A DNA stretch of 18,720 nucleotides. It comes from a virus. Taxonomy: Duplodnaviria; Heunggongvirae; Uroviricota; Caudoviricetes. The translations under genes were made by a program, and so were the position numbers. Where the stretch lies: positions 1 through 18,720 of the IMG/VR virus record IMGVR_UViG_2634166457_000003, one strand, 5' to 3'. Positions 1-18,302 of this stretch are shown piece after piece (positions within the stretch are counted from its first letter, which is position 1; the number at the start of each line of letters is the position of its first letter). The notes beneath the pieces are model-generated. The model did not search any database and was not told the DNA's origin. It saw only the letters and a program-made list of their open reading frames with translations.

Positions 1-87
1 GTGGTTTTTTTGTATCCGTGGGATTGTTCGGCTCGCTATACAACTTTGCGAAGCATAGCGGAATTAAAGCAGTTTATACGTAAGAAA

Positions 88-630
88 TCAAGCCATTTTC
101 TCAGCAAATGATTCACGCATGGGAATATATAGGACATACTCAGCAACAGCTAACCAATTAGCGATCCGTTTTTCGCATGTGCTAAAACACCACTCTGGGT
201 GTGCATCATTGAGCAATTCAGCCATTTTACGCTTAGTCATCCCCCGCCCTTCATAGCGTTGCCGGAGAATGCAAATCAATCCTGGATGCTCTGCCAGCAC
301 CTCACTTATGACTCGATCAATACATAACGCCTCTGCATCAGTACAATGCGCCAGCCAGCTCTTTTGCTTGCCGTTGATCATCTCTCTCAAAAACGCTTCC
401 AGCTCAGCTTTCTCTATTCCCGCTTTTTTCATTCTGCGCAGGGCTTCATTGATGGCTGTTTTTGTCATTTTTGGGGATGCCAGCAACTGGTTAAACATAT
501 TCCCTGACCTGCCGCCGCCAATATACGACCAGCGCCCCCACATACGTAGTTTTCCCTGAATCCAGACACTTTCCAGCGTGGTGAGACGAAGGTGTTCTCC
601 GCTTTTTCCTGTATTCGTTGGGTAAATCAT
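88..630 (-). CDS. Putative late-gene antiterminator (Q-like), 180 aa
   Basis: Last gene of the leftward early operon, after the nin-like genes. Start trimmed to ATG at 630 (MIYPT...) preceded by AGGAGG; ATGA overlap with the upstream gene. Family assignment is by position plus a weakly recalled WGRW-type motif. Confidence 0.4.
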   Translation of the reverse strand: MIYPTNTGKSGEHLRLTTLESVWIQGKLRMWGRWSYIGGGRSGNMFNQLLASPKMTKTAINEALRRMKKAGIEKAELEAFLREMINGKQKSWLAHCTDAEALCIDRVISEVLAEHPGLICILRQRYEGRGMTKRKMAELLNDAHPEWCFSTCEKRIANWLAVAEYVLYIPMRESFAEKMA

Positions 631-917
631 AAATATCCCTCCTTTCTCCAGATTTCTTGTGTGCGAAGAACACCTTCTGCATGCATCAGGCGTAATTCTT
701 CTTTGGTGTAATCGATGGTTTTTACCCGCCCGTCGATTAGATCGTGGCATGAGCTACAGGCAATCGCCGCCTGCATATCGTGTGGTTTTGTCGCTGTTCC
801 GCACGTTCCCGCCAGTCGGTAATGCGCCAGCACAGACGTTTCCGGATCGTGATTGCAGTAGCCAGGAATTCTGACGGTGCACACCTGCCCCCGCGCCGCT
901 TTACGTAAATCCACCAT
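627..917 (-). CDS. YbcO-like (DUF1364-type) zinc-binding protein, putative nuclease, 96 aa
   Basis: 96 aa with Cys/His-rich motifs (CTVRIPGYCNHD...ACSSCHD); same length as the recalled DLP12 YbcO; start overlaps the stop of the upstream gene by 1 nt. Confidence 0.5.
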   Translation of the reverse strand: MVDLRKAARGQVCTVRIPGYCNHDPETSVLAHYRLAGTCGTATKPHDMQAAIACSSCHDLIDGRVKTIDYTKEELRLMHAEGVLRTQEIWRKEGYL

Positions 918-1516
918 TACGCAAACTCCAGCAGCTGCGCGGCCACATTTTCGACTTGTTCCGGAGAGGAAAATTTACGGAACAGAATCCAGTTCCACAG
1001 CACATTCAGAACAGATTTATAAACCTGCTGAAACTCGGTTTCGTCCATATTCGCAAAAGCGATGGATTTCGCCCGACGCCCATGGCTACCGTCCGGATAA
1101 AAATGTTCGGTGTAAAATCCAGCCTGAATGGTTACCCACTCGCGAAAAGCCTCAAACGACTTTAGCAATGCCGTATCCCGGGTTCTGCGTGTCGCAACTG
1201 TATTCAGATATTGCTCTGCGGCATCACTCAGGGCTGGCGTGTGTTCCCGACCAACTGATTCGCACAGGTAATCAACGAAACCAGACAGCAGTTCTCGTTC
1301 GCGAGGCGTGATCGCCCCACCGACCGGAGTCCAGTAATCGAATCCCAGTTGCAGGAGTTTGAAAAAACGCTTGTGGAATGCGTAGTTACGCACACGCTTA
1401 AAGTCTGCGTGTATCCACTCACCTATTTTGATTTGATGCAGAAAATCGCAACTCTCCGGCGTCGCCGGGAGAAGTAAACCAGAAGAAGTTTGTTTGACCA
1501 GTTGTATATGCGCCAT
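917..1516 (-). CDS. nin-region phage protein of unknown function (possibly DUF1367-like), 199 aa
   Basis: Long ORF with ATG start, coupled to the downstream YbcO-like gene; the family name is not verifiable from sequence alone. Confidence 0.5.
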   Translation of the reverse strand: MAHIQLVKQTSSGLLLPATPESCDFLHQIKIGEWIHADFKRVRNYAFHKRFFKLLQLGFDYWTPVGGAITPRERELLSGFVDYLCESVGREHTPALSDAAEQYLNTVATRRTRDTALLKSFEAFREWVTIQAGFYTEHFYPDGSHGRRAKSIAFANMDETEFQQVYKSVLNVLWNWILFRKFSSPEQVENVAAQLLEFA

Positions 1517-1979
1517 TTCTCAATCTCTCGATGGCGCAGTGCAGCAGATGCCAGTTGTTCAGGCTGACGTATAAAGTATAAATAAACTGGTTCCAGTGTA
1601 AAGCCCCCACCTTAATGGAATAAAAACCAAACAACAGATTGCTGGGATACAAACAACGCTTATTATTAAAAGCGGTTAAACAAATTAAATTTTAATGTTA
1701 TGCAAATTTGTCAGATCACCATAATATCTCATTTGAAAACCGCTGAAATAACAACCCTATCAGGGTTAATCATATTAAGGTGAGTAAATATGGAAAACAA
1801 CAAATCTGCACATTACGTTCCTTTTTTATCCGTAATACTTTTTGTTTTATGCTGTGCGTGGGCATTATTTTTATAAAAATATTTACAGATGAAGTAAACC
1901 CGCCAATCAGGTTAACTGTGGCTGCGTTGAGGATGCATAATACATCAGAGGTTGCGGGGATTTCTCCCCGCTGGTCCTC

Positions 1980-2135
1980 TTACTCCCCAAGTTCGTAAGC
2001 TGTGAAGACAGCGACCTCCGTCTGGCCGGTTCGGATTCGTACCTCGCAGAGGTCTTTCCTCGTTACCAGTGCCGTCACTATGACGGTTAAACAGATGACG
2101 ATAAGGGCGATTAACATCGCCTTTTGCTGCTTCAT
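1980..2135 (-). CDS. Hok/Gef-family type I toxin, 51 aa (HokD/RelF-like)
   Basis: MKQQKAMLIALIVICLTVIVTALVTRKDLCEVRIRTGQTEVAVFTAYELGE: single transmembrane helix plus the conserved C-terminal CE.R.R....EVA..YE motif of the Hok family. AAGGAG sits 9 nt upstream of the ATG. The track ORF 1980..2192 is an in-frame upstream extension of it. Confidence 0.75.
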   Translation of the reverse strand: MKQQKAMLIALIVICLTVIVTALVTRKDLCEVRIRTGQTEVAVFTAYELGE

Positions 2136-2393
2136 AGCCTGCTTCTCCTTGCCTTTCGGCACGTAAGAGGCTAACCTACATTTGCTAGACATAGATTGGG
2201 CCTCAGATTAATGTTAAGCGTCTTGCAGGACGCGTAATGTTAACTGGGGCTTTTCTCTATCTGCCGTTGGTGGCATGCCCGAGGCAGATAGCCTCAAGCA
2301 CCCGCTGCAATTCTACTTAACTCTTCTTTTCCCGCAAACCGTTTTTATCCAGCACAGCAAATAGCCGCATTAAGCCAATGTTGTTCATTGTGT

Positions 2394-2573
2394 TTACCGC
2401 CAGTATTCAATACAAATGACCGCCATGAATACCCCTACAAAAAGCGCACTTATATGTCCAAATATTAATGTCAAGACATCAACTTCCTCCATCTCCTCCG
2501 CTGTTGCGATGATAGGTATACATGATGCAAACAACCAGATTGCAACAAATAAAAACTGCAATGTCTTTTTCAT
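2394..2573 (-). CDS. Small two-helix membrane protein, 59 aa, hypothetical
   Basis: Start trimmed to ATG (MKKTLQFLFVAIWLF...) preceded by GGGGGA; two hydrophobic helices separated by an acidic loop (TAEEMEEVD). Confidence 0.4.
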   Translation of the reverse strand: MKKTLQFLFVAIWLFASCIPIIATAEEMEEVDVLTLIFGHISALFVGVFMAVICIEYWR

Positions 2574-2688
2574 TATTCCCCCGACAATCAATGAGTAATA
2601 ACATTTAAACATAGATTGACATAATCAGACATAAAAATATCTGGCTGCACATTTTGCTTACATCGTGTTATAGGGAAGATTAAAAAAT

Positions 2689-3252
2689 TCACCGCAAAAC
2701 ATCCGCCGCGCTTACCAGTCCATTTCGCTTCAGGTAGTCCATCGCTTTATCCGGTAATTTGCAGTCCGACTTCACTTTCTTCAACTGGCTGACCAATTGC
2801 TTAACCAGCATGGTTAATTCATTAATCTGTTTGCCTGGTACTGGTGGATTGTCGGTTGCACCATGACTGGCAGTACAGTTAGCACTCCCTCCCTTCTCCT
2901 CCTGCAGCGGTTCAGGTAACGCTTCCAGTGATGTTTTTACAAACCACGCTGCCTGAACTATAACGCCATGAATCCAGCGCAAATCAGCATCGCGATCTTT
3001 CTTTTTCATCTTCTCGCCACTTAAAGCCTGGCTTATGTGACTGCGTACCAGGTCTTCATGTAACTCCTTCGCATCCTCAATGGTGAAACCACCAGGTAAA
3101 CGCCCCAGAGTTACCGGAGAGTTGCCAGCCTTGCGCATGGCAATTTCCACGATTTCAACCATATCTTCTGGTGGAATTTTACAATGCTGGCCAATATGCC
3201 TCTGCTGTCTGGCATACTCGAGGATGTGCTCCAGCTTGGTTCGATTAATCAT
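2689..3252 (-). CDS. Hypothetical phage protein, 187 aa
   Basis: ORF with ATG start overlapping the upstream stop (ATGA), consistent with translational coupling; no motif recognised. Confidence 0.6.
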   Translation of the reverse strand: MINRTKLEHILEYARQQRHIGQHCKIPPEDMVEIVEIAMRKAGNSPVTLGRLPGGFTIEDAKELHEDLVRSHISQALSGEKMKKKDRDADLRWIHGVIVQAAWFVKTSLEALPEPLQEEKGGSANCTASHGATDNPPVPGKQINELTMLVKQLVSQLKKVKSDCKLPDKAMDYLKRNGLVSAADVLR

Positions 3253-3728
3253 GATTTATCTCCCTTAAGCATGGCGGCGCGGCAGGCGTTAAGCGCGTTT
3301 TGCACGCGTTTAGCGTTCTGTACTTCGTATTTAGGTGCGGCTGCCAATGCCCATAGCCAACCAATTTCATAGCTATCAGCTTTTGATAGAGCACATTCCA
3401 TTTCCAGTGTTATTTTCTTAGGTACGAGTTGCCAATCATCTGGCACTACTGGCGCTGGTGCCCCAGACAGCAAAGCATCAGCCATACACATAGCTTCCAG
3501 TCCCGTAGCCTCCGCGATACCGTCACGAATAAGCTCAAGCCCCTCTTTTGTTAATAGTTTCATTCCTTTATACATGACGGGCACTAGCGGTTCTGTTTCC
3601 AGCGATGCCAGTGCAATTTTGAATAACTCACCCTCTACTCGTGCCACGCCTGAATTGGGATGGCATTTCGCAATCGCTATTTTTAATTTAGCTTCTTCAA
3701 TTAATTGTTCTTTTGTTAATTCAGCCAT
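3249..3728 (-). CDS. Hypothetical phage protein, 159 aa
   Basis: ORF in the operon frame series; Shine-Dalgarno weak; no motif recognised. Confidence 0.55.
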   Translation of the reverse strand: MAELTKEQLIEEAKLKIAIAKCHPNSGVARVEGELFKIALASLETEPLVPVMYKGMKLLTKEGLELIRDGIAEATGLEAMCMADALLSGAPAPVVPDDWQLVPKKITLEMECALSKADSYEIGWLWALAAAPKYEVQNAKRVQNALNACRAAMLKGDKS

Positions 3729-3821
3729 TTTTCACTACCGCCCTTTCAGGCGCTCCTGATGTTCTGAGGGTGCAGAAATCCCTCCGGTTAAGGATTAAAT
3801 TTTTAACAGTGCTAAATTTAA

Positions 3822-4178
3822 TTATTCAGTTCTGGATTTTGTCGCTCTGCGTATCCCCGCTTTTGCGTTACGCTCAATCTGAATTAACTTTTCTATATTT
3901 TTCCGCCTTTCCTGTTCCTCCTGGCGCAATAGCCTTACATCCTCTGCCAGTCTGGTTTCTCTTTTCGCCACAGAGAGCATCCAGCCAAACGGCTCCACAA
4001 CTGCACTGCAGATTTTACAGCGGACCTGACGCTCTTTTTCATCAACCCGGACAGAAGCGTGATGGCAATATGGTCTTTCCGATGGCTCATAAAGAAAATT
4101 AACCTGATTACGTGGGTCATCTTCTTTTACCGGAAATAAAACAATATTACTTAACTCATCTTCTGGTTTTATTTCCAC
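3822..4178 (-). CDS. Hypothetical Cys/His-rich (zinc-ribbon-like) protein, about 118 aa
   Basis: GTG start at 4178 preceded by AAGGAG with 6-nt spacing; alternative ATG start at 4211 would overlap the upstream gene. Motif PYCHH...CKIC. Confidence 0.5.
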   Translation of the reverse strand: MEIKPEDELSNIVLFPVKEDDPRNQVNFLYEPSERPYCHHASVRVDEKERQVRCKICSAVVEPFGWMLSVAKRETRLAEDVRLLRQEEQERRKNIEKLIQIERNAKAGIRRATKSRTE

Positions 4179-4179
4179 G

Positions 4180-4491
4180 TCACTCTCCTTTGATGCGAAT
4201 GCCAGCAACACGTAGTGCGCGCTCTAAATCAGCCAGATAAATCCAGCTGCCATTTTCCTTAGGTATCATGACATGGCGCTCATCAGCATTTATCGGGTGT
4301 CCATATCGAAGTTCATAGCCAGCCGGTAGCTGGACTTCCCTTGCCTCCAGTTCTGCAATGCGCTTGTCTTTGGCTTCCAGTTCATCAAGAACCTTTTTTA
4401 TGGCTGGTGAATGTGTCGCATAACTCGCAGCCGGACCGGCAAGCATTATCCTGAGCTGCGTTTTCGCTTTTTCCGTGTTCATTTGGTTCAT
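4180..4491 (-). CDS. Hypothetical phage protein, 103 aa
   Basis: ATG-initiated ORF in the operon; coiled-coil-like middle region (ELEAKDKRIAELEARE). Confidence 0.55.
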   Translation of the reverse strand: MNQMNTEKAKTQLRIMLAGPAASYATHSPAIKKVLDELEAKDKRIAELEAREVQLPAGYELRYGHPINADERHVMIPKENGSWIYLADLERALRVAGIRIKGE

Positions 4492-4506
4492 TACCTTATT
4501 TAGTGG

Positions 4507-4914
4507 CTATATTCCCCAATAGAACGTTAGTATACGCTGCATAACTTCGCTTTCCCGGCACTCGCTACAGATTATGTTCTGACGCCTGTCATAACGACGT
4601 ATTTCTCCGTCTGGTAATGACCAGATAAGGTCCGGATCAACCACAGATGTTTTTTTCTTCAGCTTTGCCCTTGAGAGTTTTTTGCGGGCATTTTGCCAGT
4701 CCTTACGAGCCTGTTCTGACGGGAATAACCCGTAGCCAGAGCTGTATACATCACCACTGACAACCAGCTCTCTTGCAAGAACGCTCATCAGATATCTTGT
4801 CGCACCTGTTTTAGCTTCCAGTTGCCGTAACGTCTCACGACCGCTCTGGCGCACGAGTTCCACCACCTGCCTTTTAATTTTTTCCCGCTCTTCTTGTGTA
4901 AATACTTTTGCCAT
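4507..4914 (-). CDS. Hypothetical phage protein, 135 aa
   Basis: Start trimmed to ATG (MAKVFTQ...) 8 nt downstream of GGAGG; basic C-terminal segment. Confidence 0.55.
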   Translation of the reverse strand: MAKVFTQEEREKIKRQVVELVRQSGRETLRQLEAKTGATRYLMSVLARELVVSGDVYSSGYGLFPSEQARKDWQNARKKLSRAKLKKKTSVVDPDLIWSLPDGEIRRYDRRQNIICSECRESEVMQRILTFYWGI

Positions 4915-4929
4915 AAGCGCCTCCGGCAA

Positions 4930-5691
4930 TCACTTTTCCGACACAATACGACTGGAGGAATCGACAATCTGTCGAACAATATCCCGGTGCTTGTTCAGCT
5001 CCCGTAGCGCGGCGCAGACTCGCTCCCACTTCTGGACATGACTTTTCGCCCGGCGCAGTTCGCGGTTTGCCATATGCAGCGATGGTAAAATCAGGTCATT
5101 GGCTCGCGTTTCAGTGAACGATGGTAGTGACTGCACAATGTCCCCCATAGTATCTGTTTTAATTTCTTCCTGTGTTGCCGCTTCCTGTGCTGGTAACGCA
5201 ACACCGGCTGGCTGAGGAAAGGCTTTACCATCAGTTTCCGCTACCGATGCAGCTTTCGGCTCTGCTGGTAAATTATCGCCCGGCATGCAGTAACGAAATT
5301 TACCGTTCTGATTAACGCGAATCAGACGACCTTTACTGATTGCCATTGCCAGCGTTGAAGCCACTTTGCGTGATGTGATGCCGAAAAACGTAGCCAGTTC
5401 ATCCGCCGTTTGTGGGCCACGTTGTTCAATCGTCGCAGTTAAATCGCACTCCGAAATTTTTGCGACTGTTGCCGTGGTGGTTTCTTCCGGCAGTTCTGCC
5501 TGCTCTGGCTGTTCCTGCTGAACGTTGTTATCAGCCACACGCCAGGTGTATACGCTTTTATCAACGAAACCAGCCTTTTTCAGTTCCCACAGCTCGTTCA
5601 GTACCTCTTCACGACTGATATCAAGTCGCGCAGCCAGTTCTACCGACGTGGCTTTTCCCATTGCTTTCAGTGCGTCAAAAACAGTCTCCAT
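4930..5691 (-). CDS. YdaW-like putative DNA-binding protein, 253 aa
   Basis: Start trimmed to ATG (METVFDALK...) preceded by GGGAGG; two winged-helix-like segments. Lies immediately downstream of ydaV, where K-12 Rac carries the ydaW remnant. Confidence 0.55.
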
Positions 5692-5713
5692 TAAAATTTC
5701 CTCCCGGTAAAAA

Positions 5714-6460
5714 TCACTTCGCAATTCCTGGCTGGACGACATTCGGACGCCAGCTCTCCCAGTTAAAATTCACCCAGCGTCCGCCGTTCATGGTCATGCG
5801 ATCCATAATCCGCTCGCCGAGCAATGTTTTCATCGCCTCATAGTTCAGGTTTGTCAGCATCCCCACGCTGCGCATCGACGCTGTCCGGCGATCAACAATC
5901 TGGTGCAGCACCACCTGCTCGTTTTTTGTCTCGCGCTGAATGCCAATTTCATCAAGAACCAGCAGATCCACTTGGCACAGTTCCCGCAAAAATTTTTCGC
6001 CTGATTGCCCGTCGTCATAGCTGGCGTGTAGAGCACTCATGACATCAGCCACGGTAACCACAATCACTGTCTGGCCATCTTTCAGCAGGCGATTCCCGAT
6101 AGCCGCCGCCAGATGGTTTTTTCCGGTACCAGGTTTTCCGCTGAACGCAAAATTTGTACACCCGGTCATCAGTTCATCAGCGATAGATTTCGCCTGGTTC
6201 AACGCGTATCGCTGACCGTCGTTCTGCACCTGGTAATTCGCAAACGAGCATTTGCGGTGCAATGGCTGGATGCCAGAGCGATTCAGAATTTTTTCCACCC
6301 GCAACTGACGATTCTGACGGTTGATCTCCTCACAACGTTTCTGGCCTTCGGAAAGTTGCCACTCGCGCCACTCCGCTACCGTTTTGAATGGGGCGGTTAC
6401 ATGTGGCGGGGCCAGTCTGCGGATACGTTCAAGAATGCCGCCTGCCGCAATATTTTTCAT
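5714..6460 (-). CDS. ydaV: DnaC/IstB-like AAA+ replication helicase-loader (YdaV), 248 aa
   Basis: Walker A motif [16 protein letters not shown]; length and sequence match the recalled K-12 YdaV; follows the O-like gene. Confidence 0.85.
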
Positions 6461-6466
6461 GGTCAG

Positions 6467-7324
6467 TTACCCCCTGAAGCCTGGCGGGATCGCACTATCC
6501 GGTAACGAGACGGTGTTAACCTGTCGGAGTAACGTCTCAGGTCGAACACCTTTTGGCGCGAACAAGCCCTGGTATTCATTGGCGATGCTGTGTCGAATCA
6601 CCTGCTCAGGTGAAAAACCCTGCTGGCGGAATTTTTCCAGCTCCCGTATCGCCCCGTTAGCGCCCTGCTCCGTTCGAATCGGTTTACGCAATGCCTGGCG
6701 AAATTCAACCCACTCACGCCAAAGCGAGACAGAAATCCAGTTCGGCAAAGCAATATCCAGAGGGTCAAACTTTTTGACACCTCGATTACCCCGGGGGGGA
6801 TTTAGGGGGGGATCTGTTTTTAGATCTTTATCTGTATCTTTATTAGTTGCCTTTGTGTTGACATCATGTTCAAACACCACTTCAACATCTGTTTGAACAC
6901 CTGTTAAATTTCTCTCTTGTTTTGTTTGAACATCTGCTTCCTTTCTGCTTCTTCTGGCCTGAACCGATGCTTTTCCTGCGGCTGATTTTTTGGTTAATTT
7001 TTCCCTGACTGATGCCAGATCTTCCTCAATCCGAAGATGCACCCATTCCTCGCCGTTATCGCAAAAAAACTCCCGCAAGGATGGTTCAACATCAGCCCAT
7101 CGCTCGTTAGTCAGGCGGGCAATTTTTGCCAGCCTGTTTTTAGGTATTGGCTTTCCTGTTTGCCAGTAATTGAACATCAGCAACAAATACGCACCATGCT
7201 CCTCTGCTGACAAATGCATGGTGTCAGCCAGGTAATCAGCTATGTACAGTTGCATGTATGGTAATGCGGCCATAATTGCCCCGTATGATGCTGCCCGGTG
7301 GCTTAGAATAAGCACAAACAGCAT
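6467..7324 (-). CDS. ydaU: Phage replication initiation protein (YdaU, O-like), 285 aa
   Basis: 285 aa ORF with ATG start; position between the cII-like and DnaC-like genes; matches recalled K-12 YdaU length. Confidence 0.8.
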   Translation of the reverse strand: MLFVLILSHRAASYGAIMAALPYMQLYIADYLADTMHLSAEEHGAYLLLMFNYWQTGKPIPKNRLAKIARLTNERWADVEPSLREFFCDNGEEWVHLRIEEDLASVREKLTKKSAAGKASVQARRSRKEADVQTKQERNLTGVQTDVEVVFEHDVNTKATNKDTDKDLKTDPPLNPPRGNRGVKKFDPLDIALPNWISVSLWREWVEFRQALRKPIRTEQGANGAIRELEKFRQQGFSPEQVIRHSIANEYQGLFAPKGVRPETLLRQVNTVSLPDSAIPPGFRG

Positions 7325-7336
7325 GGAAACTTTTGC

Positions 7337-7759
7337 TTAATGAACAATGACAGAATCGTCGGAAGACCCGCCGCCGCTGAAATGCGCTTTCCGGTAAACG
7401 GCTTGGACTGCATCATCATGCGCATCAATTGCCGTACTTAACGCTTCCTGCGCCGCCAGTAATGCACGGCGTTCCAAGGTATCGAAGATGTAGAGTCGGT
7501 GACGCAGATCGCGCGGAAGGATTGCCAGAATTGCTGGGATCAGCTTCTGAATTTTTTCTCTTTGCGTTTTTGTTTCACCTTTCAACCAACGGTGATAGAT
7601 ATTCTGCTGATTGTTCCAGTCCTTGCCTGGAACCAGGGGCAATTCGCAGTCCCCCTGGCGCAGATATTCTTCAGTAATTGCATTGGCTACCCATGCCTGC
7701 CCTTTTTCGGCTGCCAGGGCAAACAACACTGATTCGATGTGCTCATGCTTGATTTTCAT
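7337..7759 (-). CDS. ydaT: YdaT (cII-like early regulator/toxin), 140 aa
   Basis: 140 aa, immediately downstream of the cro-like ydaS; matches recalled K-12 Rac YdaT. Confidence 0.8.
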   Translation of the reverse strand: MKIKHEHIESVLFALAAEKGQAWVANAITEEYLRQGDCELPLVPGKDWNNQQNIYHRWLKGETKTQREKIQKLIPAILAILPRDLRHRLYIFDTLERRALLAAQEALSTAIDAHDDAVQAVYRKAHFSGGGSSDDSVIVH

Positions 7760-7781
7760 GAATCATTTGCCTCTTGATGTT

Positions 7782-8078
7782 TCAGGTATGATCAAATGAG
7801 GATTTGTTACTGTCTTTTAGTTGCTTCACTGACATATTCTGCGAACAACATGCCGAACGTCGTAAATATGACCAGTCAATATCAGGACGAAGTTCTTCGC
7901 ACAGAACCTCACCTCTTGTTGCACGTTCAATTGCTGGACATCTCTCGGCAGGCAATTGACGTACCCCTTTGATCCATTGATTTACGCTTGGAGGTGATAC
8001 ACCTAAAAGCCTAGCCATTGCTGATTGCCCACCGACAACAGCACAAGCTTGCTTGAATGAATAGTTCTCTTTTTTCAT
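7782..8078 (-). CDS. ydaS: YdaS (Cro-like HTH regulator/toxin), 98 aa
   Basis: Helix-turn-helix segment (QACAVVGGQSAMARLLGVSPPSVNQWIKG); divergent from racR; GGAG 9 nt upstream of the ATG. Confidence 0.8.
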   Translation of the reverse strand: MKKENYSFKQACAVVGGQSAMARLLGVSPPSVNQWIKGVRQLPAERCPAIERATRGEVLCEELRPDIDWSYLRRSACCSQNMSVKQLKDSNKSSFDHT

Positions 8079-8104
8079 CGAATGAACTCCAAAAACACAC
8101 AGGA

Positions 8105-8134
8105 ATATTAGGCGACGCCTAACGCAAATGTCAA
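8105..8134 (-). promoter_or_regulatory. pR-like sigma70 promoter for ydaS (TTGACA-18-TAATAT on minus strand)
   Basis: On the minus strand, -35 TTGACA (8129-8134) and -10 TAATAT (8105-8110), about 25 nt upstream of the ydaS start; overlapped by TTAGGC-type operator half-sites. Confidence 0.55.
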
Positions 8135-8190
8135 TAGGCTATGCCTAATGCGATAAAGGTAGGGATTGCCTAATGTAATGCGCATAGGAG
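8107..8190. promoter_or_regulatory. Operator cluster (OR-like) between ydaS and racR
   Basis: Repeated dyads built from TTAGGC / GCCTAA half-sites: TTAGGCGACGCCTAA (8108-8122), ATAGGCTATGCCTAAT (8134-8149), and a weaker GCCTAAT-containing site near 8166-8186. Confidence 0.6.
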
Positions 8191-8201
8191 AATATTAAGC
8201 A

Positions 8202-8678
8202 ATGCTTAGTGGTAAAGACTTAGGCCGAGCGATAGAGCAGGCCATTAACAAAAAAATCGCATCGGGATCCGTCAAATCAAAGGCGGAGGTCGCACGCCAC
8301 TTCAAAGTCCAACCACCATCAATTTATGACTGGATTAAGAAAGGCTCTATAAGTAAAGATAAACTTCCAGAATTATGGCGTTTCTTTTCTGATGTTGTTG
8401 GTCCAGAGCATTGGGGGCTTAACGAATACCCCATACCAACCCCCACCAATTCAGATACAAAAAGTGAACTTTTAGATATAAACAACCTTTATCAAGCAGC
8501 CTCTGATGAAATAAGAGCGATTGTAGCTTTCCTGTTATCTGGAAATGCTACAGAACCAGATTGGGTTGACCACGATGTTCGCGCCTACATAGCAGCGATG
8601 GAAATGAAAGTGGGTAAGTATCTGAAAGCTCTAGAATCTGAACGGAAAAGCCAGAACATCACAAAAACTGGAACTTAA
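8202..8678 (+). CDS. racR: Prophage repressor RacR (CI-like), 158 aa
   Basis: 158 aa; divergent from the cro-like ydaS; flanked on both sides by operator dyads; AGGAG upstream of the ATG; matches recalled K-12 RacR. Confidence 0.85.
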   Translation: MLSGKDLGRAIEQAINKKIASGSVKSKAEVARHFKVQPPSIYDWIKKGSISKDKLPELWRFFSDVVGPEHWGLNEYPIPTPTNSDTKSELLDINNLYQAASDEIRAIVAFLLSGNATEPDWVDHDVRAYIAAMEMKVGKYLKALESERKSQNITKTGT

Positions 8679-8749
8679 ACTTATATGGTCTGACGGAAAA
8701 CTCCTGGATTCCGTTATTTAACCCCCCCATCACTTTCTGCTGTCGCCAT

Positions 8750-8817
8750 CACCTATTAGGTTACGCTCAAAACATTAGGCATAGCCTATTGACAATCAAT
8801 TAGGCATTACCTATAGT
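8750..8817. promoter_or_regulatory. Operator cluster (OL-like) downstream of racR
   Basis: ATTAGGCATAGCCTAT (8774-8789) is the exact reverse complement of the OR-side site at 8134-8149; additional TTAGGCATTACCTAT (8799-8813) and CCTATTAGG (8752-8760). Confidence 0.6.
8789..8817 (+). promoter_or_regulatory. pL-like sigma70 promoter for the ydaG-to-intR operon (TTGACA-17-TATAGT)
   Basis: Consensus -35 TTGACA (8789-8794), 17-nt spacer, -10 TATAGT (8812-8817); operator half-sites overlap the -35 and the spacer. Confidence 0.6.
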
Positions 8818-8986
8818 TCCAGCATACCACCCACCCCGCCCCACAGAACGCCGGGCAATACTTCGAGTTACCAGGCAGTGGTAAGGGGTTAAGTAGCCAG
8901 CCCGAGGCGTATGAACATGACGGCGGGATTCAAATTTTGCAGTGCAGCAGTTAGTTCCGCCACCCGGCGTTAAGGGGAGAGATAAG

Positions 8987-9121
8987 ATGGTGCATTACGA
9001 AGTAGTTCAGTATTTGATGGATTGTTGCGATATCACTTACAGCCAGGCTGTACAGGCTCTACGCAGCAACGACTGGGACCTCTGGCAGGCAGAAGCCTCT
9101 ATCCGCAACAACAAAATGTGA
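8987..9121 (+). CDS. ydaG: YdaG, 44 aa small protein
   Basis: Not in the six-frame track (under 60 aa). ATG at 8987 follows AAGGGGAGAG; translation MVHYEVVQYLMDCCDITYSQAVQALRSNDWDLWQAEASIRNNKM; matches recalled K-12 YdaG length. Confidence 0.7.
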   Translation: MVHYEVVQYLMDCCDITYSQAVQALRSNDWDLWQAEASIRNNKM

Positions 9122-9131
9122 GGTGCGAAAA

Positions 9132-9287
9132 ATGCAAAAAATCGACCTCGGCAATAACGAATCCCTGGTGTGCGGCGTATTCCCCAACCAGGACGGTACG
9201 TTCACCGCGATGACGTATACCAAAAGCAAAACATTTAAAACCGAAACTGGTGCGCGCCGATGGTTGGAGAAGCACACAGTAAGCTAA
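9132..9287 (+). CDS. ydaF: YdaF, 51 aa small protein
   Basis: Not in the track. ATG at 9132 follows AGGTG; translation MQKIDLGNNESLVCGVFPNQDGTFTAMTYTKSKTFKTETGARRWLEKHTVS; matches recalled K-12 YdaF length. Confidence 0.7.
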   Translation: MQKIDLGNNESLVCGVFPNQDGTFTAMTYTKSKTFKTETGARRWLEKHTVS

Positions 9288-9772
9288 CGATTAAAACGCC
9301 TACTCCTGCTGTTCCAGAATAACTTCATAAAGTGGGAGTATTTTTCGGTGACTAGATAATAAGAACAGTTTGCGCTATCACTCTGATGTTGAATGATGCC
9401 CTTCCGTTCTAATTTTTTCATAACCGGGTTACGGCAAGGAGAAGTGATAATAAGATTTCCTGTTTTAAGGAAATCTTTAAATACAGCGATTTCTTTCTCA
9501 GATAAACGAAGCAATACTCGTTGCTCTGGCAGCAATGAATAATGCTTTTGAATATGTGCTCGCAATCTTGAGAAGGAAATGGCGACCACGAAAGAAAAGG
9601 CAAAAACGATAATCTGAAATAGCCAGGATATTTCAGTATAAGAATTGAATGCGACAGCGAACTCTTTCGGTATCAACCAGAGAGTGAGACCAAAAATGAT
9701 AATCGTGTACATAAGTCTTTCGAGTGGCTCGTTAGCAAAAAGTTTCAACAATGGAGTAAATACATCCAACAT
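9284..9772 (-). CDS. sieB: Superinfection exclusion protein SieB, 162 aa
   Basis: Start trimmed to the internal ATG (MLDVFTPLLKLF...) to give the 162-aa length recalled for K-12 SieB; hydrophobic N-terminal helices. Coordinates follow the track frame. Confidence 0.75.
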   Translation of the reverse strand: MLDVFTPLLKLFANEPLERLMYTIIIFGLTLWLIPKEFAVAFNSYTEISWLFQIIVFAFSFVVAISFSRLRAHIQKHYSLLPEQRVLLRLSEKEIAVFKDFLKTGNLIITSPCRNPVMKKLERKGIIQHQSDSANCSYYLVTEKYSHFMKLFWNSRSRRFNR

Positions 9773-9990
9773 ATCAATAACTCTCGACTGTAAGGGTATT
9801 GAAATGTTAACACAAGCTCTCGCTGTAGGGGTATAGCAGAGACCACCGAAGCCCGGAGGTGGTGAAATAAAACCGGGCACAACACGAAGGCGCATTTCCG
9901 ATATCCATAAAGAGTCGGTCTTGTCTGTTAAATTTAAATGGTGGGAGTGCGCCTCCGGTTGTGGATAACAACACTGCTGTGTGTAGTCTT

Positions 9991-10037
9991 GGCGGCATCA
10001 GTTTTTTCTTGAAGTTCGACTGATGTCCGCCCTTTTT
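9991..10037 (+). terminator. Candidate intrinsic terminator upstream of kilR
   Basis: Imperfect inverted repeat GGCGGCATCAGT ... ACTGATGTCCGCC followed by CTTTTT. Confidence 0.35.
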
Positions 10038-10212
10038 AAAGTGAATTTTGTGATGCGGTGAATGCGGCTAAGCGCACGCGGCACAGTTAAAAGTCATGTT
10101 AGTCCTTATTGGTTTGGGTGGGAAAGCCGACTGTAATTGTTAACTGGTTGCAGTCACCTGGAGGCACCAGGCACCGCATCAACAAAGTTCATTTGTAAAA
10201 ATGGAGATAATT

Positions 10213-10434
10213 ATGATTGCACATCACTTCGGAACTGATGAAATACCACGTCAGTGTGTGACTCCTGGTGACTATGTTCTTCATGAAGGCCGGACATATA
10301 TTGCATCGGCAAACAATATTAAAAAGCGAAAACTTTATATTCGTAACCTGACCACAAAAACATGCATTACTGACTGCATGATTAAAGTCTTCCTCGGTCG
10401 TGATGGTTTACCTGTAAAGGCGGAGTCATGGTGA
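10213..10434 (+). CDS. kilR: Cell-division inhibitor KilR, 73 aa
   Basis: Start trimmed to the second ATG ([14 protein letters not shown]...); matches the recalled K-12 KilR sequence and length. Confidence 0.85.
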
Positions 10435-10604
10435 TGACTAAGAAAATAAAATGTGCTTATCACCTTTGCAATAAAGGAATTGAAGAAAGCAAAAGCATTA
10501 AAAGACCACTTCATTTCATGCGTGGAGTTATCCCAACGACGGAAATGAAAAAATATTGTAGTGAAATTTGTGCCGAAAAAGACCAGATGGCACACGAACT
10601 TTAA
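10434..10604 (+). CDS. ydaE: YdaE, 56 aa Cys-rich small protein
   Basis: Not in the track. [15 protein letters not shown]...CSEICAEKDQMAHEL; start overlaps the kilR stop; alternative start at 10428. Confidence 0.7.
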   Translation: MTKKIKCAYHLCNKGIEESKSIKRPLHFMRGVIPTTEMKKYCSEICAEKDQMAHEL

Positions 10605-10677
10605 TTAACTAACTATGCGAAACTGAATTTATGCCAGCAATGGCAGGGATTCGCTCAACCTTAATTAAGGAGAAAAA

Positions 10678-10953
10678 ATGATTACCAATTATGAAGTCAC
10701 TGTTGTAACTACCGATGACATTGTTCACGAGATTAATCTGGAAGGAAAGCGTATTGGCTACGTGATTAAAACAGAAAATAAAGAAACCCCATTCACTGTG
10801 GTTGATATTGACGGCCCATCAGGCAACGTAAAAACACTTGATGAAGGTGTCACAAAAATGAGTCTGGTTCACATCGGAAAGAATCTGCCCGCAGAAAAAA
10901 AAGCCGGATTTCTGGCAACTCTGATTGCAATGAAATTAAAAGGTGAAATCTGA
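10678..10953 (+). CDS. racC: RacC, 91 aa
   Basis: 91 aa; GGAG upstream of the ATG; matches recalled K-12 RacC; immediately upstream of recE. Confidence 0.8.
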   Translation: MITNYEVTVVTTDDIVHEINLEGKRIGYVIKTENKETPFTVVDIDGPSGNVKTLDEGVTKMSLVHIGKNLPAEKKAGFLATLIAMKLKGEI

Positions 10954-11051
10954 AAAAAGAAAGCCTGCACAACGTGCAGGCCTGAGTGAAGAACCTGGGA
11001 CATTTATTCATCACTCGCAGTAATTTTAATCTGAGTTGAGGTTAAAAAACA

Positions 11052-14000
11052 ATGAGCACAAAACCACTCTTCCTTTTACGGAAAGCGAAAAAATCATCCG
11101 GTGAGCCTGACGTCGTCCTGTGGGCAAGCGACGATTTTGAATCAACCTGTGCCACTCTGGACTACCTGATCGTTAAGTCAGGTAAAAAACTGAGCAACTA
11201 TTTTAAAGCTGTTGCCACGAGTTTTCCTGTCGTTAATGACCTGCCCCCTGAAGGTGAGATCGATTTTACCTGGAGTGAACGCTATCAACTCAGCAAAGAC
11301 TCCATGACCTGGGAACTAAAACCGGGAGCAGCGCCAGACGACGTTCACCACCAGGATAATGCTCAGGAAACCAAAGAACTGGCGGGAGGCCAGGAAGAAA
11401 ACGCGCAGGCAGACGCCCACGGGGATTGCCAGGATTGCGAAGTCTCTGTAGCCACTTTGCGGTTCACACAGCGTCTTCTTCACATTTTTACGTATGCGGC
11501 CGGGGATCGGAAATACCTGCATCATGCTACCCGTGAACAACGCGAACACATTACTGCTCTTGAGATGGACCAGGAAAACAGCTATGTCCAGAATCTGCTG
11601 TTGGCCATACGCGGCATGGCAGAACCGACAACTCTGGATAATGCCGCCCTGCTCCGCCTGACTGATGCAATTAAGGCAGTTTTCTCTATCACGAAAAAAC
11701 ATCAGCCCTATGAATTTAAGAATTTCATTTCAGCCTGGCTGGATACCGAACACATTGATCGTGGTCTTCTGACAAAAGAATGGAGGAAAGGGAATCGTGT
11801 TTCACGCATCACTCGCACGGCTTCCGGTGCTAATGCTGGCGGCGGGAACCTCACCGATCGCGGCGAAGATTTCGTCCACGATCTGACGTCACTGGCACGC
11901 GATGTAGCCACTGGCGTACTGGCCCGTTCAATGGACGTGGACATCTATAACCTTCATCCGGCACACGCTAAACGCATTGAGGAAATTATCGCTGAAAATA
12001 AACCGCCCTTTTCTGTTTTCCGCGACAAATTCATCACCATGCCTGGCGGGCTGGATTATTCCCGCGCCATCGTGGTTGCGTCCGTAAAAGAAGCACCAAT
12101 TGGGATCGAGGTCATCCCCGCGCACGTCACTGAATATCTGAACAAAGTACTGACTGAAACCGATCATGCAAACCCTGATCCGGAAATCGTGGATATTGCC
12201 TGCGGTCGCTCCTCTGCCCCGATGCCGCAGCGAGTAACAGAAGAAGGAAAACAGGATGATGAAGAAAAACCGCAACCATCTTGCGCAATGGCAAATGAAC
12301 AGGCAACGGCTGAAACAATGGAACCGGACGCAACTGAACATCATCAGGACACGCAGCCGCTGGATGCTCAGTCACAGGTAAATTCTGCTGATGCGAAATA
12401 TCAGGAACTGCGGGCAGAACTCCATGAAGCCCGGAAAAACATTCCATCAAAAAATCCTGTCGATGCCGACAAATTGCTGGCTGCCTCGCGTGGTGAGTTC
12501 GTTGAAGGGATTAGCGACCCGAACGATCCGAAATGGGTAAAGGGGATCCAGACTCGCGACTCTGTGTACCAGAACCAGCCAGAAACGAAACAAAACACGC
12601 CAGAAACTGTAAAAACCAGCCCGGATGTGAAACAACCTGAGCCAGTAGTGCAACAGAAACCGGAAATAGTCTGCAATGCCTGCGGTCAGACTGGCGGGGA
12701 TAACTGCCCTGACTGTGGTGCGGTGATGGGCGACGCAACATACCAGGAAACATTCGATGAAGAGAATCAGGTTGAAGCTAAGGAAAATGATCCGGAGGAA
12801 ATGGAAGGCGCTGAACATCCGCACAAGGAGAACGCTGGCAACCATCCGCATCACGATTGCAGTGATGAAACTGGTGAAGCGTCAGCTCATGTAGCAACTG
12901 AAATCATGTGGCCGTCATATTTCGAGCCTGGCCGCTATGAAAACCTCCCGAACGAGGTTTATCACTCCGCCAACGGAATAAGCAGCACAATGCTGAAGGA
13001 TGCCCGCATCAGTCTGATGTATTACCACGGGCGGCACATTGCCGGAACTATTCCGAACGAGGAAAGTGATGCATTGCTGCGTGGGCGGATCATTCACAGC
13101 TATGTTCTGGAAACGGATAAATTCGCTGATGAATATGCCATTCCGGTACCGGTTCCTGAATATGTGGTTACTACTTCTAACGAGCTGATCACCATCATTA
13201 AAAAACACAATGCCAGTCTGCCATCACTGATGACACCAGAGCAGATGAAAGAGTGGATCGAAAGCTACAACAGCACTCTTATACAGCCACTGTCGGTAAG
13301 CGCTGGGGCCGAAGAAACAGGCATCCTTTACGGTTCGCTTCCGGAGGAATTTCGGCGTATTCCTGAGGGGGAAAAACACACAGCATCAGCAATGAAAGCC
13401 TGTATTAAAGAATACAACGCAAGCCTCCCTCCTCTGCTGAAAACCAGTGGAACACGGGAGCAGCTTCTGGAGCAAATTGAAACTGTAGATCCAGAACTGG
13501 CAAAAAAAGAACGTGCTAAATCGTTGCCTTACAACATCAGTGGCACAAAAGAGCAATTAACCGAAATCGCCCGGAAAATTCGCCCGGAACTGGTAACACT
13601 GGAGGACTGGCAAAAACGCCAGCAAGAAGAAAATGCAGGAAAAACGTTTATCAGTCCAGATATGTATGAACAGGCAAAAAATATTCACGTGGCACTGCAA
13701 AACAATACTGACGCGGCAAGACTACTCAACCACCCGGATCGCAAATCTGAAATCAGCTATTTCGGGTTTGATGAAGAAACCGGGCTGGAAATCAGGGTCC
13801 GCCCTGATATCGAAATCCGACTGCCATACGAAAGCATCTGCGCCGACGTGAAATCAGTAAGCCTCGGTTATGTGCGGCAAGAACGACTAAAAGATCGCTT
13901 ACACCGTGAAATTATTGAACGTGATTATCACCTGAGCGCCGCAATGTACTGCGATGTGGCAAACTTGGACAAATTTTTCTGGATCTTCGTCAACAAAGAT

Positions 14001-14063
14001 GCTGGCTATCACTGGGTGGCTGTCGTGGAAGCCTCGCAGGAACTCCTGGAACTTGGTCGATAG
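11052..14063 (+). CDS. recE: RecE-like exodeoxyribonuclease VIII, 1003 aa as read; ends at an in-frame amber codon with the frame open to 14195
   Basis: N-terminal roughly 600 aa match the recalled K-12 RecE ([26 protein letters not shown]...); the C-terminal domain carries PD-(D/E)xK-like motifs ([13 protein letters not shown]). TAG at 14061-14063 is followed by 43 sense codons in the same frame up to TGA 14193-14195. Confidence 0.8.
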
Positions 14064-14206
14064 GAATATCGCCGGACGCTACGACAGATAAACGAAGCGC
14101 TGGAGACAAACAACTGGCCAGCACCGATTACCGAAAGTTATACCGACGAATTAAACGACTTTGATCTTCGTCGTCTTGAAGCACTGAGCATCTGAGGAAG
14201 GACACA

Positions 14207-15259
14207 ATGAACGAATTAACTCAACAAGAAAATATTAACTCTAATGTTGCAGTTTTCAGCCCTCAGTCTCTGGCTGCAATTCAGACGTTTTCTCAGGTAA
14301 TGGCTTCCGGCATGGCTACTGTACCGGAACACCTCCGAGGAAATCCATCAGACTGCATGGCCATCACCATGCAGGCGATGCAGTGGCAAATGAACCCTTA
14401 CGCAGTAGCTCAGAAAACTTTCGTTGTGAATGGTGTGCTCGGATATGAAGCGCAACTGGTTAATGCCGTAATCAGTACTCGTGGGCCGCTAACCGGGCGT
14501 ATTGAATATGACTGGTTCGGGCCGTGGGAAAAAATTATCGGGAAATTTGAAATCAGGAAGAACGACAAAGGGAAAGAATATCGTGTACCTGGCTGGAAGC
14601 TGGCCGATGAAAACGGGATCGGAGTTCGCGTCCAGGCAACACTACGCGGAGAGAGCAAACCACGCGTACTGGAGTTACTTCTGGCGCAGGCCAGAACACG
14701 TAACTCAACGTTATGGGCCGATGATCCTCGTCAGCAGCTTGCCTATCTGGCACTGAAACGCTGGGCGCGCCTTTATTGCCCTGAAGTGATTCTTGGAGTG
14801 TACACCCGGGACGAACTGGACGAACCACAGGAAAAAATCATTAATCCGGTTCAGGAACATAAAAACACATCCGCCTGCCGTGCGGAACGTGAAACAACAA
14901 TTATTGAGCAGGATGCAGGGGAAAACTGGATCAGTGCTTTCCGTGAACGTATTGAGCAGGCACAAAGCACCGGAGAAACAACAGCACTTCGGCAGGAAGT
15001 GGAAGAGCATAAAAATACACTTGGCGCTCTCTATACGGAACTTAAAGGAAAAGTGGTTCAGCGTCATCACCGTCTCAATGCTATTGCCCGTATTGAGAAG
15101 ATGATAAATGACCTGCCTTCATCAGGTGATCCGGAAGCAGAACAAAAATTTACTGCTCTGGAAAATGCGTTGAATGCTGCACGACCACATCTGGGAGAAT
15201 TATATGAGGCGTATAAAACGACACTGACAGATATGAAACCAGAATATATCGGCTCCTGA
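14207..15259 (+). CDS. Single-strand annealing protein of the Red-beta/RecT superfamily, 350 aa (not K-12 RecT)
   Basis: Sits in the recT position after recE; GAGGAAGG upstream of the ATG. Segments MNPYAVAQKTFVVNGVLGYEAQLVNAVI and WADDPRQQLAYLALKRWARLY resemble the Red-beta core, while the overall sequence differs from the recalled K-12 RecT. Confidence 0.7.
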   Translation: MNELTQQENINSNVAVFSPQSLAAIQTFSQVMASGMATVPEHLRGNPSDCMAITMQAMQWQMNPYAVAQKTFVVNGVLGYEAQLVNAVISTRGPLTGRIEYDWFGPWEKIIGKFEIRKNDKGKEYRVPGWKLADENGIGVRVQATLRGESKPRVLELLLAQARTRNSTLWADDPRQQLAYLALKRWARLYCPEVILGVYTRDELDEPQEKIINPVQEHKNTSACRAERETTIIEQDAGENWISAFRERIEQAQSTGETTALRQEVEEHKNTLGALYTELKGKVVQRHHRLNAIARIEKMINDLPSSGDPEAEQKFTALENALNAARPHLGELYEAYKTTLTDMKPEYIGS

Positions 15260-15322
15260 TATTTACTATGGCGGCGTAGCCTCACCGCCATAACAAAACT
15301 TTATTTTATGAGAGAAAATACA

Positions 15323-15517
15323 ATGCGGTATGAAAAAGTCAAACCATGTCCATTTTGTGGTTGTTCATCAGTAACGGTGAAAGCCATTTCAGGATATTAC
15401 CGAGCGAAGTGTAACGGATGCGAATCCCGAACCGGCTATGGTGGAAGTGAAAAAGAAGCACTCGAACGATGGAATAAACGAACCTCTGGAAATAATAATG
15501 GAGGTGTTCATATATAA
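15323..15517 (+). CDS. ralR: RalR (Lar), 64 aa; type I toxin with DNase activity and restriction-alleviation role
   Basis: Start trimmed to MRYEKVKPCPFCG...; Cys-rich motif CPFCGC...CNGC; matches the recalled K-12 RalR sequence and length. Confidence 0.85.
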   Translation: MRYEKVKPCPFCGCSSVTVKAISGYYRAKCNGCESRTGYGGSEKEALERWNKRTSGNNNGGVHI

Positions 15518-15698
15518 AATTACCGCCACTATTGAAAAGGAAGGAGGCACTCCTACTAACTGGACAAGATATTCAAAATCTAAACTAACGAAATCAGAAT
15601 GCGAAAAAATGCTCTCAGGTAAAAAAGAAGCAGGCGTTTCCAGAGAGCAGAAAGTAAAACTGATAAATTTTAATTGCGAGAAACTTCAGTCCTCATGA
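15498..15698 (+). CDS. ydaC: YdaC-like small protein, about 66 aa
   Basis: ORF overlapping the ralR 3' end in another frame; start uncertain (ATG at 15498 or 15438, neither with a clear Shine-Dalgarno); position matches ydaC of K-12 Rac. Confidence 0.5.
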   Translation: MEVFIYKITATIEKEGGTPTNWTRYSKSKLTKSECEKMLSGKKEAGVSREQKVKLINFNCEKLQSS

Positions 15699-15797
15699 AT
15701 TGCATTGTATTCAAATTAAAACTTCATAGCTGATTATTAATAATCAACATCGGGCGTCAATTTCAGTCTAACATTGGCGCCTGCCAGAGGTGATGCG

Positions 15798-16013
15798 ATG
15801 GCACAAGTAATCTTTAATGAAGAGTGGATGGTTGAATACGGCCTGATGCTTCGCACTGGTCTGGGTGCCAGACAAATTGAAGCATACCGCCAGAACTGTT
15901 GGGTGGAAGGCTTCCACTTCAAACGAGTATCTCCTTTAGGGAAGCCAGACAGTAAGCGAGGGATTATCTGGTACAACTATCCGAAGATAAATCAGTTTAT
16001 CAAAGACTCATGA
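15798..16013 (+). CDS. xisR: Excisionase XisR (YdaQ), 71 aa
   Basis: Start trimmed to ATG at 15798 ([12 protein letters not shown]...), since the track ORF begins on TTG; ends 1 nt before the integrase start; matches recalled K-12 YdaQ. Confidence 0.85.
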
Positions 16014-16014
16014 T

Positions 16015-17250: not shown

Positions 17251-17301
17251 TTGCAAAGTTTGCCCCCAATTTGCCCCATTTAGTACCAGAGAACTTAAAT
17301 A

Positions 17302-18237: not shown

Positions 18238-18247
18238 CCAGGATAGC

Positions 18248-18300: not shown

Positions 18301-18302
18301 CC

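Follow-up and report, generated by a model that had tools for sequence, protein, structure and literature searches.

A mobile 220-bp cassette of Rac/Qin-like prophages carries a probable gene for a 28-residue membrane peptide

Results

A 28-codon frame lies in the AT-rich spacer between hok and the ninB-like gene

We analyzed an 18,720-nucleotide stretch of a Caudoviricetes virus (IMG/VR record IMGVR_UViG_2634166457_000003, positions 1 to 18,720; hereafter the window), which represents a Rac-type lambdoid prophage adjoining ttcA and carrying intR, recET, and the RalR/RalA system. Its early-right operon runs on the minus strand in the order replication genes, several open reading frames (ORFs) without assignment, hok/sok, a 463-nt gap, and the ninB-like, YbcO-like, and Q-like genes. 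The two elements considered here, a 28-codon ORF on the plus strand and a short dyad upstream of it, both lie inside this gap, with hok on one side and the ninB-like gene on the other. An earlier note on this DNA described an AT-rich spacer between hok and the nin-region genes, which is borne out by a GC content of 0.27-0.32 across 1600-1900 against 0.47 for the whole window. It also placed a 28-codon ORF preceded by the Shine-Dalgarno sequence AAGGTGAG at 1790-1876, and both direct reading and the list of open reading frames confirm this. As set out below, this frame very probably represents a genuine gene that has escaped annotation so far and encodes a very small membrane peptide. The features of the spacer that bear on it are as follows.

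1659-1705, plus strand: conserved AT-rich block that bounds the cassette on its 5′ side; its sequence, CTTATTATTAAAA-N18-TTTTAATGTTATG, forms an imperfect inverted repeat
1700-1705 and 1722-1727, plus strand: candidate (inferred) sigma-70 promoter, with −35 ATGCAA, a 16-nt spacer, and −10 TAATAT
1728-1776, plus strand: poorly conserved leader, about 55 nt long if the transcript starts near 1734
1753-1767: dyad with 6-bp arms AACCCT/AGGGTT and an asymmetric 3-nt loop, ATC, read here as an incidental hairpin in the leader
1777-1784, plus strand: Shine-Dalgarno sequence AAGGTGAG, 5 nt (TAAAT) before the ATG
1790-1876, plus strand: 28-codon ORF with the product MENNKSAHYVPFLSVILFVLCCAWALFL
1877-1881, plus strand: 3′ edge of the cassette, where homology to other contexts ends 1-5 nt past the stop codon

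The frame is conserved and under selection at the protein level

Relatives of the spacer are 90-100% identical to the window in clade A and about 75% identical in clade B, while a third lineage, clade C, was found by a metagenome scan anchored on the AT-rich upstream block and lies outside any prophage. Loci were retrieved from viral contigs (n = 115) and metagenomes (n = 74) with anchors placed outside the ORF, so that the sample is not biased toward intact copies. The earlier note had proposed conservation among related prophages as a check on both the ORF and the dyad. For the ORF the outcome is clear: the 28-codon frame is intact, with no indels, in 115/115 viral-contig and 74/74 metagenome loci (189/189). 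A further 21 metagenome and 7 viral anchor matches fall outside the family and were set aside as chance matches in AT-rich organisms. Of the six possible frames, that of the 28-codon ORF alone remains open across all haplotypes. Clades A and B diverge by 0.197 in the ORF, with no gap columns, as against 0.478 with 6 gap columns in the leader and 0.450 with 10 gap columns in the segment 1606-1656.

The substitutions themselves show a coding pattern. In simulations, every substitution kept its mutation type and was moved to a randomly chosen site occupied by the identical base, and the resulting number of synonymous events was compared with the observed count. For the three clades together, the observed count is 28 synonymous events out of 56, where 15.4 would be expected, a value reached in 0 of 5000 simulations; with clades A and B alone the count is 17 of 38 against 10 expected (P ~0.01). 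The ratio of nonsynonymous to synonymous divergence (dN/dS, Nei-Gojobori method, NG86) lies between 0.04 and 0.30 for the consensus sequences of the three clades, and codons 3-14 show six differences between clades A and C, all of them synonymous. On this comparative evidence the 28-codon frame is under purifying selection as a protein, and its protein-coding status, taken alone, is the part of the interpretation in which we place the most confidence and which we regard as highly probable. Two other accounts of the ORF were considered and set aside: a 6-bp stem inside it (ATTACG/CGTAAT) is broken in clade B, and the contexts share no common downstream plus-strand gene to which a leader peptide or upstream open reading frame could belong.

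The peptide has a polar tail and a C-terminal hydrophobic stretch

The predicted peptide begins with nine polar residues (MENNKSAHY), followed by a 19-residue hydrophobic stretch that reaches the C-terminus. The apolar run is uninterrupted from Pro11 to the last residue (18-19 residues), and the grand average of hydropathicity (GRAVY) over residues 10-28 is 2.3-2.6 for the clade A and clade B variants computed, with 2.6 for the peptide of the window. These dimensions agree with those of small membrane proteins, defined as having at most 50 amino acids and a membrane-long hydrophobic stretch, and the stretch would probably form one helix.

An alignment of 214 loci yields 20 peptide variants, in which Met1, Asn3, Asn4, His8, Pro11, Phe12, Leu13, Ser14, Ile16, Leu17, Phe18, Cys21, Trp24, Ala25, Phe27, and Leu28 show little or no variation. 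Those helix positions that do vary (15, 19, 20, 22, 23, and 26) are grouped on a single face (R = 0.63; only 2.9% of position subsets reach this value), a pattern that would fit a membrane helix in which a single strip faces the lipid and a conserved surface makes contacts. The selection seen on the polar tail and on the conserved helix faces suggests a specific contact rather than a detergent-like action.

Profile searches of the peptide against Pfam and NCBIfam at E ≤ 10 returned no family, the only hit being an unrelated NCBIfam entry at 0.21, and searches of PHROGs, PADLOC, and the PDB gave no match. Exact look-ups of 16 peptide variants among ~15 billion predicted proteins found none of them, and the sequence string did not appear in a literature search. 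Among the novel small membrane proteins in the available part of a 2026 preprint on small ORFs of CFT073, none could be equated with the peptide. A lipoprotein or signal-peptide reading was rejected: the peptides of clades A and C have no lipobox with Gly, Ala, or Ser at −1, and no mature part would remain.

The ORF belongs to a mobile cassette of about 220 bp

Most of the region 1517-1900 is present in 1161 of 5426 complete Escherichia coli genomes, about a fifth, and none of the listed rows of E. coli matches has an annotated feature beneath it. The carriers in E. coli are Rac/Qin-like prophages. In the Qin prophage of K-12, rem occupies the equivalent place and likeness to the window begins only at 1896, in the 3′ end of hok; O157 strains have only the first 49 nt in common with 1517-1900.

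The left neighbor is mostly the DUF1367 gene, although in one lineage it is replaced by a hypothetical gene and DUF968, with the junction at 1541. The right neighbor varies and includes hok/sok with or without relBE, the anti-phage pair iteS/iteA, a NACHT NTPase, and DUF1971 with KilA-N. In the prophage contexts lacking hok, homology stops 1-2 nt past the stop codon of the ORF (coverage ends at 1877-1878 in clade B and in the iteS contexts). The position to the right of the mini-gene is a swap site for toxin-antitoxin and anti-phage cargo; this variable slot, beyond 1878, can be seen in loci L002 (hok/sok with relBE), L003, L005, and L007 (about 2900-5400).

The 5′ boundary is set by clade C, which matches the window only over 1659-1881, so that the conserved, transferable unit is a cassette of ~220 bp made up of the AT-rich block at 1659-1705, the leader, the Shine-Dalgarno sequence, and the ORF. 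The clade C copy sits at the edge of an island of ~8 kb (locus L231, 2484-10809; also L279 and L282) that encodes NleF-like and AvrPphF/HopF-like effectors, a 593-residue protein without assignment, and a trkG-like gene. The enterobacterium that carries this island has it inserted between pphA and sdsR/ryeA-yebY, and its core genes on either side share 84-85% identity with those of K-12. Judged by these sequence comparisons, the segment 1659-1879 of the window is a self-contained, horizontally mobile mini-gene of ~220 bp.

Further scans delimit its known range. In a collection with one genome per species the family was found only in Escherichia ruysiae and Shigella flexneri, with patterns that could miss clade C. 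A tblastn search of phages and plasmids returned only unannotated copies, located in four induced E. coli prophages and in two chromosomes mislabelled as plasmids. In two further viral-contig loci (L131 and L154), an IS2 end, TGGATTTGCCCCTATATTTCCAGACA..., lies at the equivalent of ~1640, between the promoter-like block of the phage backbone and the mini-gene.

The cassette contains a conserved upstream block, a candidate promoter, and a variable leader

The AT-rich block hardly varies among the three clades, and clades A and B diverge there by 0.126, with no gap columns, compared with 0.45-0.48 in the flanks. The arms of its inverted repeat lie at 1658-1671 and 1690-1703. We presume that the block is the promoter-upstream or regulatory region of the mini-gene, and the sequence upstream of the candidate −35 resembles an UP element. 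In most relatives the block contains TAGATAAATT, a sequence similar to TCGATAAATT, at which H-NS nucleates, so that the block may be subject to xenogeneic silencing or may be the site of a regulator.

The candidate −10 conforms to TAnnAT in all three clades (TAATAT, TAACAT, and TAGCAT) and always lies exactly 19 nt past a conserved TTATG, with unalignable sequence in between. The accompanying −35 is weak in the clades (ATGCAA or ATGAAA, with a 16-nt spacer). The TAATAT element is a probable promoter of the mini-gene, as judged from this conserved spacing.

The leader that would follow is the most variable segment of the cassette, and RNA comprising the leader and ORF folds no better than its shuffles (z +0.29). 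The TAAGGT core of the Shine-Dalgarno sequence is kept in clades A1, B, and C. Its long-range sequestration by CACCTTAA (1606-1613) was considered and rejected, because relatives carry mutations in this octamer that nothing compensates. In each context the stop codon is followed by hairpins, and these belong to the neighboring modules, where they look like terminators of convergent minus-strand units.

Within the leader, the earlier note reported AACCCTATCAGGGTT (1753-1767) as a perfect 15-bp palindrome and proposed it as an operator of the ORF or a host-factor site. The repeat is not perfect, its reverse complement being AACCCTGATAGGGTT. Stems of this kind (perfect, at least 6 bp, with loops of 3-8 nt) were counted in simulations under a first-order Markov model of 1560-1900, in which 1.4 are expected against 2 observed (P = 0.36; P = 0.08 for stems with at least three G:C pairs). 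When conservation in relatives was examined, all six pairs proved to be kept in only 7 of 50 distinct haplotypes (12 of 115 loci), and clades A2, B, and C retain two to three pairs or have no counterpart. A site function as operator, host-factor site, or minus-strand intrinsic terminator could draw on a scan that scored the dyad as a weak terminator-like hairpin on the minus strand (tail TTATTTCAGC) and on one variant pair in sub-clade A1, AATCCT/AGGATT, which amounts to a double compensatory change whose single-change intermediate would form a G:U pair on the minus strand. Against this, the U-tract is weak, and no other part of the cassette is under less constraint than the leader around the dyad. 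Imperfect, at chance frequency, and rarely conserved, the dyad offers no support for the proposed operator or host-factor role, and any such function for AACCCT-ATC-AGGGTT is highly improbable.

Neighboring features of the window

The genes and elements flanking the cassette are listed here.

88-630, minus strand: Q-like DUF1133 antiterminator gene of the operon
627-917, minus strand: YbcO-like nuclease gene of the operon
917-1516, minus strand: ninB-like DUF1367 gene
1602 to 1575, minus strand: promoter-like TTTACA-N16-TATACT directed toward the ninB-like gene, with 10/12 matches in the consensus scan
1896-1979, minus strand: 3′ untranslated part of the hok mRNA, a neighboring module convergent with the mini-gene, defined by similarity to K-12 hokD from 1896
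1980-2135, minus strand: hok coding sequence (Pfam HOK_GEF)
2130-2303: sok/hok leader (Rfam model)

The TTTACA-N16-TATACT element has the top position weight matrix (PWM) score on either strand in every clade A and clade B representative. Its hexamers and their spacing are invariant in clades A and B, where the spacer sequence differs, and the element is missing from clade C; it is part of the phage backbone upstream of the ninB-like-to-Q block and lies outside the cassette. It stands ~60 nt upstream of the ninB-like gene, and a constitutive promoter before the Q operon would be unexpected in a lysogen.

On the other side, the 3′ end of hok is structured (fold z = −3.98 versus shuffles). Its terminator hairpin at 1896-1912 is degraded to AACCCGCCAATCAGGTT in the window, while relatives keep an intact AACCCGCCGAAGCGGGTT with a T-run on the minus strand; transcripts of either strand may therefore read through there. 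Just upstream of hok/sok, a 72-codon ORF on the minus strand (2394-2612; 59 codons from MKKTLQF) has two hydrophobic stretches and no Pfam or PHROG match, and may encode another unannotated small membrane protein. Elsewhere in the window, the RalA antitoxin RNA of the RalR/RalA type I system gives a full-length match at 15516-15694 on the minus strand (219 bits), which confirms the Rac-type nature of the prophage.

Discussion

Weighing the explanations

The earlier note preferred to see the ORF as a type I toxin, with an unannotated micro-protein as its alternative, and it is the alternative that the conservation, the synonymous excess, and the cassette boundaries support well. Under a type I toxin-antitoxin system, the peptide would depolarize the membrane and its mRNA would be held in check by a cis- or trans-acting antisense RNA from the same spacer. 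The peptide has the small size (28 residues, below 60) and hydrophobicity (GRAVY 2.6 over residues 10-28) of such toxins, among which ShoB, Ibs, TisB, and DinQ are small proteins with a comparable hydrophobic C-terminal part. The neighborhood is rich in toxin-antitoxin and defense cargo (hok/sok, relBE, iteAS, and NACHT), a promoter-like sequence on the minus strand, TTTCCA-16-TATGAT (1796 to 1769, 9/12 matches), overlaps the start codon, and the strongly conserved upstream block could be a regulatory site. Nevertheless, tests of family, RNA, promoter and terminator, fold, and leader conservation all fail to support a toxin. No family match appears in Pfam or NCBIfam at E ≤ 10, and none in PADLOC, for Hok/Gef, Ldr, Ibs, TisB, Fst, and the other toxins as modelled there; no Rfam RNA reaches the gathering score, with only noise at E ≤ 10. 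Promoter-like sites in the region occur at the level of shuffled sequence (3 vs 2.0), and the minus-strand promoter and terminator candidates are not conserved across clades, the clade C hexamer being TAnnAT on the plus strand only. Both candidate RNAs fold no better than shuffles (z −0.96 for the minus-strand RNA 1640-1765, +0.29 for leader and ORF), no direct repeat hints at a divergent trans-acting small RNA, and the only octamer complementary to the Shine-Dalgarno sequence changes among relatives with nothing to compensate. Instead of a structured, conserved leader, there is one that is the most variable part of the cassette and contains indels. Moreover, the polar tail is under purifying selection, which is easier to reconcile with a specific interaction than with generic damage to membranes. 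On this evidence a type I toxin is unlikely and amounts to speculation, although toxicity on over-expression is possible.

A non-coding role for the spacer starts from its position, which on the map of phage lambda is equivalent to that of tR2, immediately upstream of the ninB-like gene. The spacer would then be a counterpart of the tR2/nin terminator, an H-NS-bound insulator with a backbone promoter, or both, and the ORF a by-product of T-richness conserved through overlapping DNA or RNA signals. The strongly conserved minus-strand element at 1602 to 1575 and the terminator-like sites on the same strand (1768 to 1752 and 1674 to 1657) are in keeping with this, as are the invariance of the 3′ end of the ORF in nucleotides and the presence of other non-coding blocks as conserved as the ORF. 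What decides against it is the codon-position-specific pattern of substitution, since dN/dS values of 0.04-0.30 are unexpected under constraint at the DNA level, together with a frame free of indels at every one of the 189 loci. In clade C, moreover, the 220-bp unit stands apart from any phage operon, a setting in which a tR2-like role would make no sense; the stretch in common with clade C does not include the backbone promoter block, and the terminator-like hairpins are not conserved. We regard this explanation as more improbable still than a toxin.

The best guess for the element is a moron-type small membrane protein. Several observations weigh against this view. The antisense frame that has its wobble positions in common with the ORF also shows a synonymous excess (25 vs 15.7), an effect of those shared positions in a frame that is closed by a stop codon throughout clade A. 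At its 3′ end the ORF has three codons and a stop codon without any nucleotide variation, so that part of the conservation may act on DNA or RNA. Hydrophobicity alone is weak evidence, because T-rich DNA gives hydrophobic ORFs by default. The candidate promoter has a poor −35 and a modest PWM score, and the consensus scan reported neither it nor any good sigma-70 promoter on the plus strand; in the common clade A2 the Shine-Dalgarno sequence is weakened to TAAAGT (AAAGTGAG). Clade C is represented by three metagenome contigs only, and transcription and translation of the mini-gene are inferred from sequence.

A proposed mobile mini-gene for a tail-anchored membrane peptide

Taking these points together, we assign a probability of roughly 0.7 to the complete proposal, namely that the cassette is a mobile, moron-type mini-gene encoding a tail-anchored, single-helix peptide of the inner membrane that acts by specific contact. 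The proposal is grounded in the sequence features, their conservation, protein-level purifying selection, and the cassette boundaries, and from these it predicts a promoter, translation, membrane insertion and localization, and a mode of action. The candidate promoter with −10 TAATAT would drive the mini-gene, and its short, unconstrained leader would contain the dyad by happenstance. Because transcription would run against the early-right operon, expression presumably takes place in the lysogen, when that operon is repressed. Translation of the ORF would give the 28-residue peptide, with nine polar residues, then a proline and a hydrophobic helix extending to the C-terminus. With this layout it should sit in the inner membrane as a single-helix, tail-anchored micro-protein. 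There it would most likely bind a host membrane protein or self-associate. The cassette itself would be a moron-type insert between the hok/sok cargo and the ninB-like-to-Q block.

The cassette is small, sharply delimited, and present in three unrelated contexts, which makes it an unusually clean candidate for experiments. It also forms the conserved border of a slot where lambdoid prophages exchange toxin-antitoxin and anti-phage systems, and may for this reason have a function connected with phage defense or the physiology of the lysogen. A far more ambitious proposal, which we consider a long shot, is that the peptide founds a new family of mobile membrane-active effectors, either toxins or modulators of host membrane proteins. 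Lambdoid prophages and type III effector islands would then exchange such effectors in the form of a 220-bp cassette, with the conserved AT-rich block keeping them silent; at the cargo hotspot that precedes the Q operon, they would aid abortive infection, the exclusion of phages, or the fitness of the lysogen. Should the peptide turn out to be a toxin, or to regulate a host transporter, the class concerned would gain a new family. More generally, a gene under strong selection, present in a fifth of sequenced E. coli genomes, is missing from annotation pipelines and protein databases, which illustrates how much prophage cargo below the 30-codon cut-off still goes unseen.

Comparison with known systems

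The small single-helix inner-membrane proteins of E. coli (MgtS, AcrZ, KdpF, PmrR, and YnfS) resemble the peptide in having fewer than 50 residues and one hydrophobic helix, and in being encoded by short, stand-alone genes with their own Shine-Dalgarno sequences that gene callers have overlooked. They differ in that the helix of the peptide reaches the very C-terminus with no flanking charged residues, and in that its gene rides on a mobile 220-bp cassette whereas theirs occupy fixed chromosomal loci. YnfS, encoded by the Qin prophage (PF23697), is likewise prophage-borne; it has 29 residues, an N-terminal MNN, and an LCC motif, and its gene adjoins a Q-like gene. There is no detectable homology between the two, as the PF23697 model scores YnfS at 4.7e-23 (80.9 bits) and none of three peptide variants at E ≤ 10.

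Type I toxins (Hok, Ldr, Ibs, TisB, ShoB, DinQ, and ZorO) are alike in peptide size and in the hydrophobic helix, and the mini-gene, like theirs, lies in horizontally acquired DNA, here beside another type I system (hok/sok). In contrast to them, the peptide has no match to a sequence family, neither an antitoxin RNA nor a structured leader nor a tandem duplication was found, and the leader is unconstrained.

The lambda tR2/nin spacer occupies the same place, between replication-side or cargo genes and the ninB-like-to-Q block, and is similarly AT-rich and non-coding in appearance. Here, no conserved intrinsic terminator was found on the operon strand, and the conserved element is instead a coding frame on the opposite strand.

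Morons are extra, independently transcribed genes inserted between the backbone genes of lambdoid phages, as defined for HK97 and HK022. The cassette is like them in its patchy occurrence, since at one backbone position some relatives have it and others lack it or carry a replacement, in its deviant base composition (GC 0.27-0.32 vs 0.47), and in its orientation against the surrounding operon next to a variable cargo slot. It is far smaller, however, and also occurs outside prophages; morons have their own promoter and terminator, whereas here the promoter is a predicted one and the terminator would be supplied by the neighboring module. Set against these systems, the peptide stands outside every described sequence family, and its gene is a widespread, cleanly delimited micro-gene rather than a new principle.

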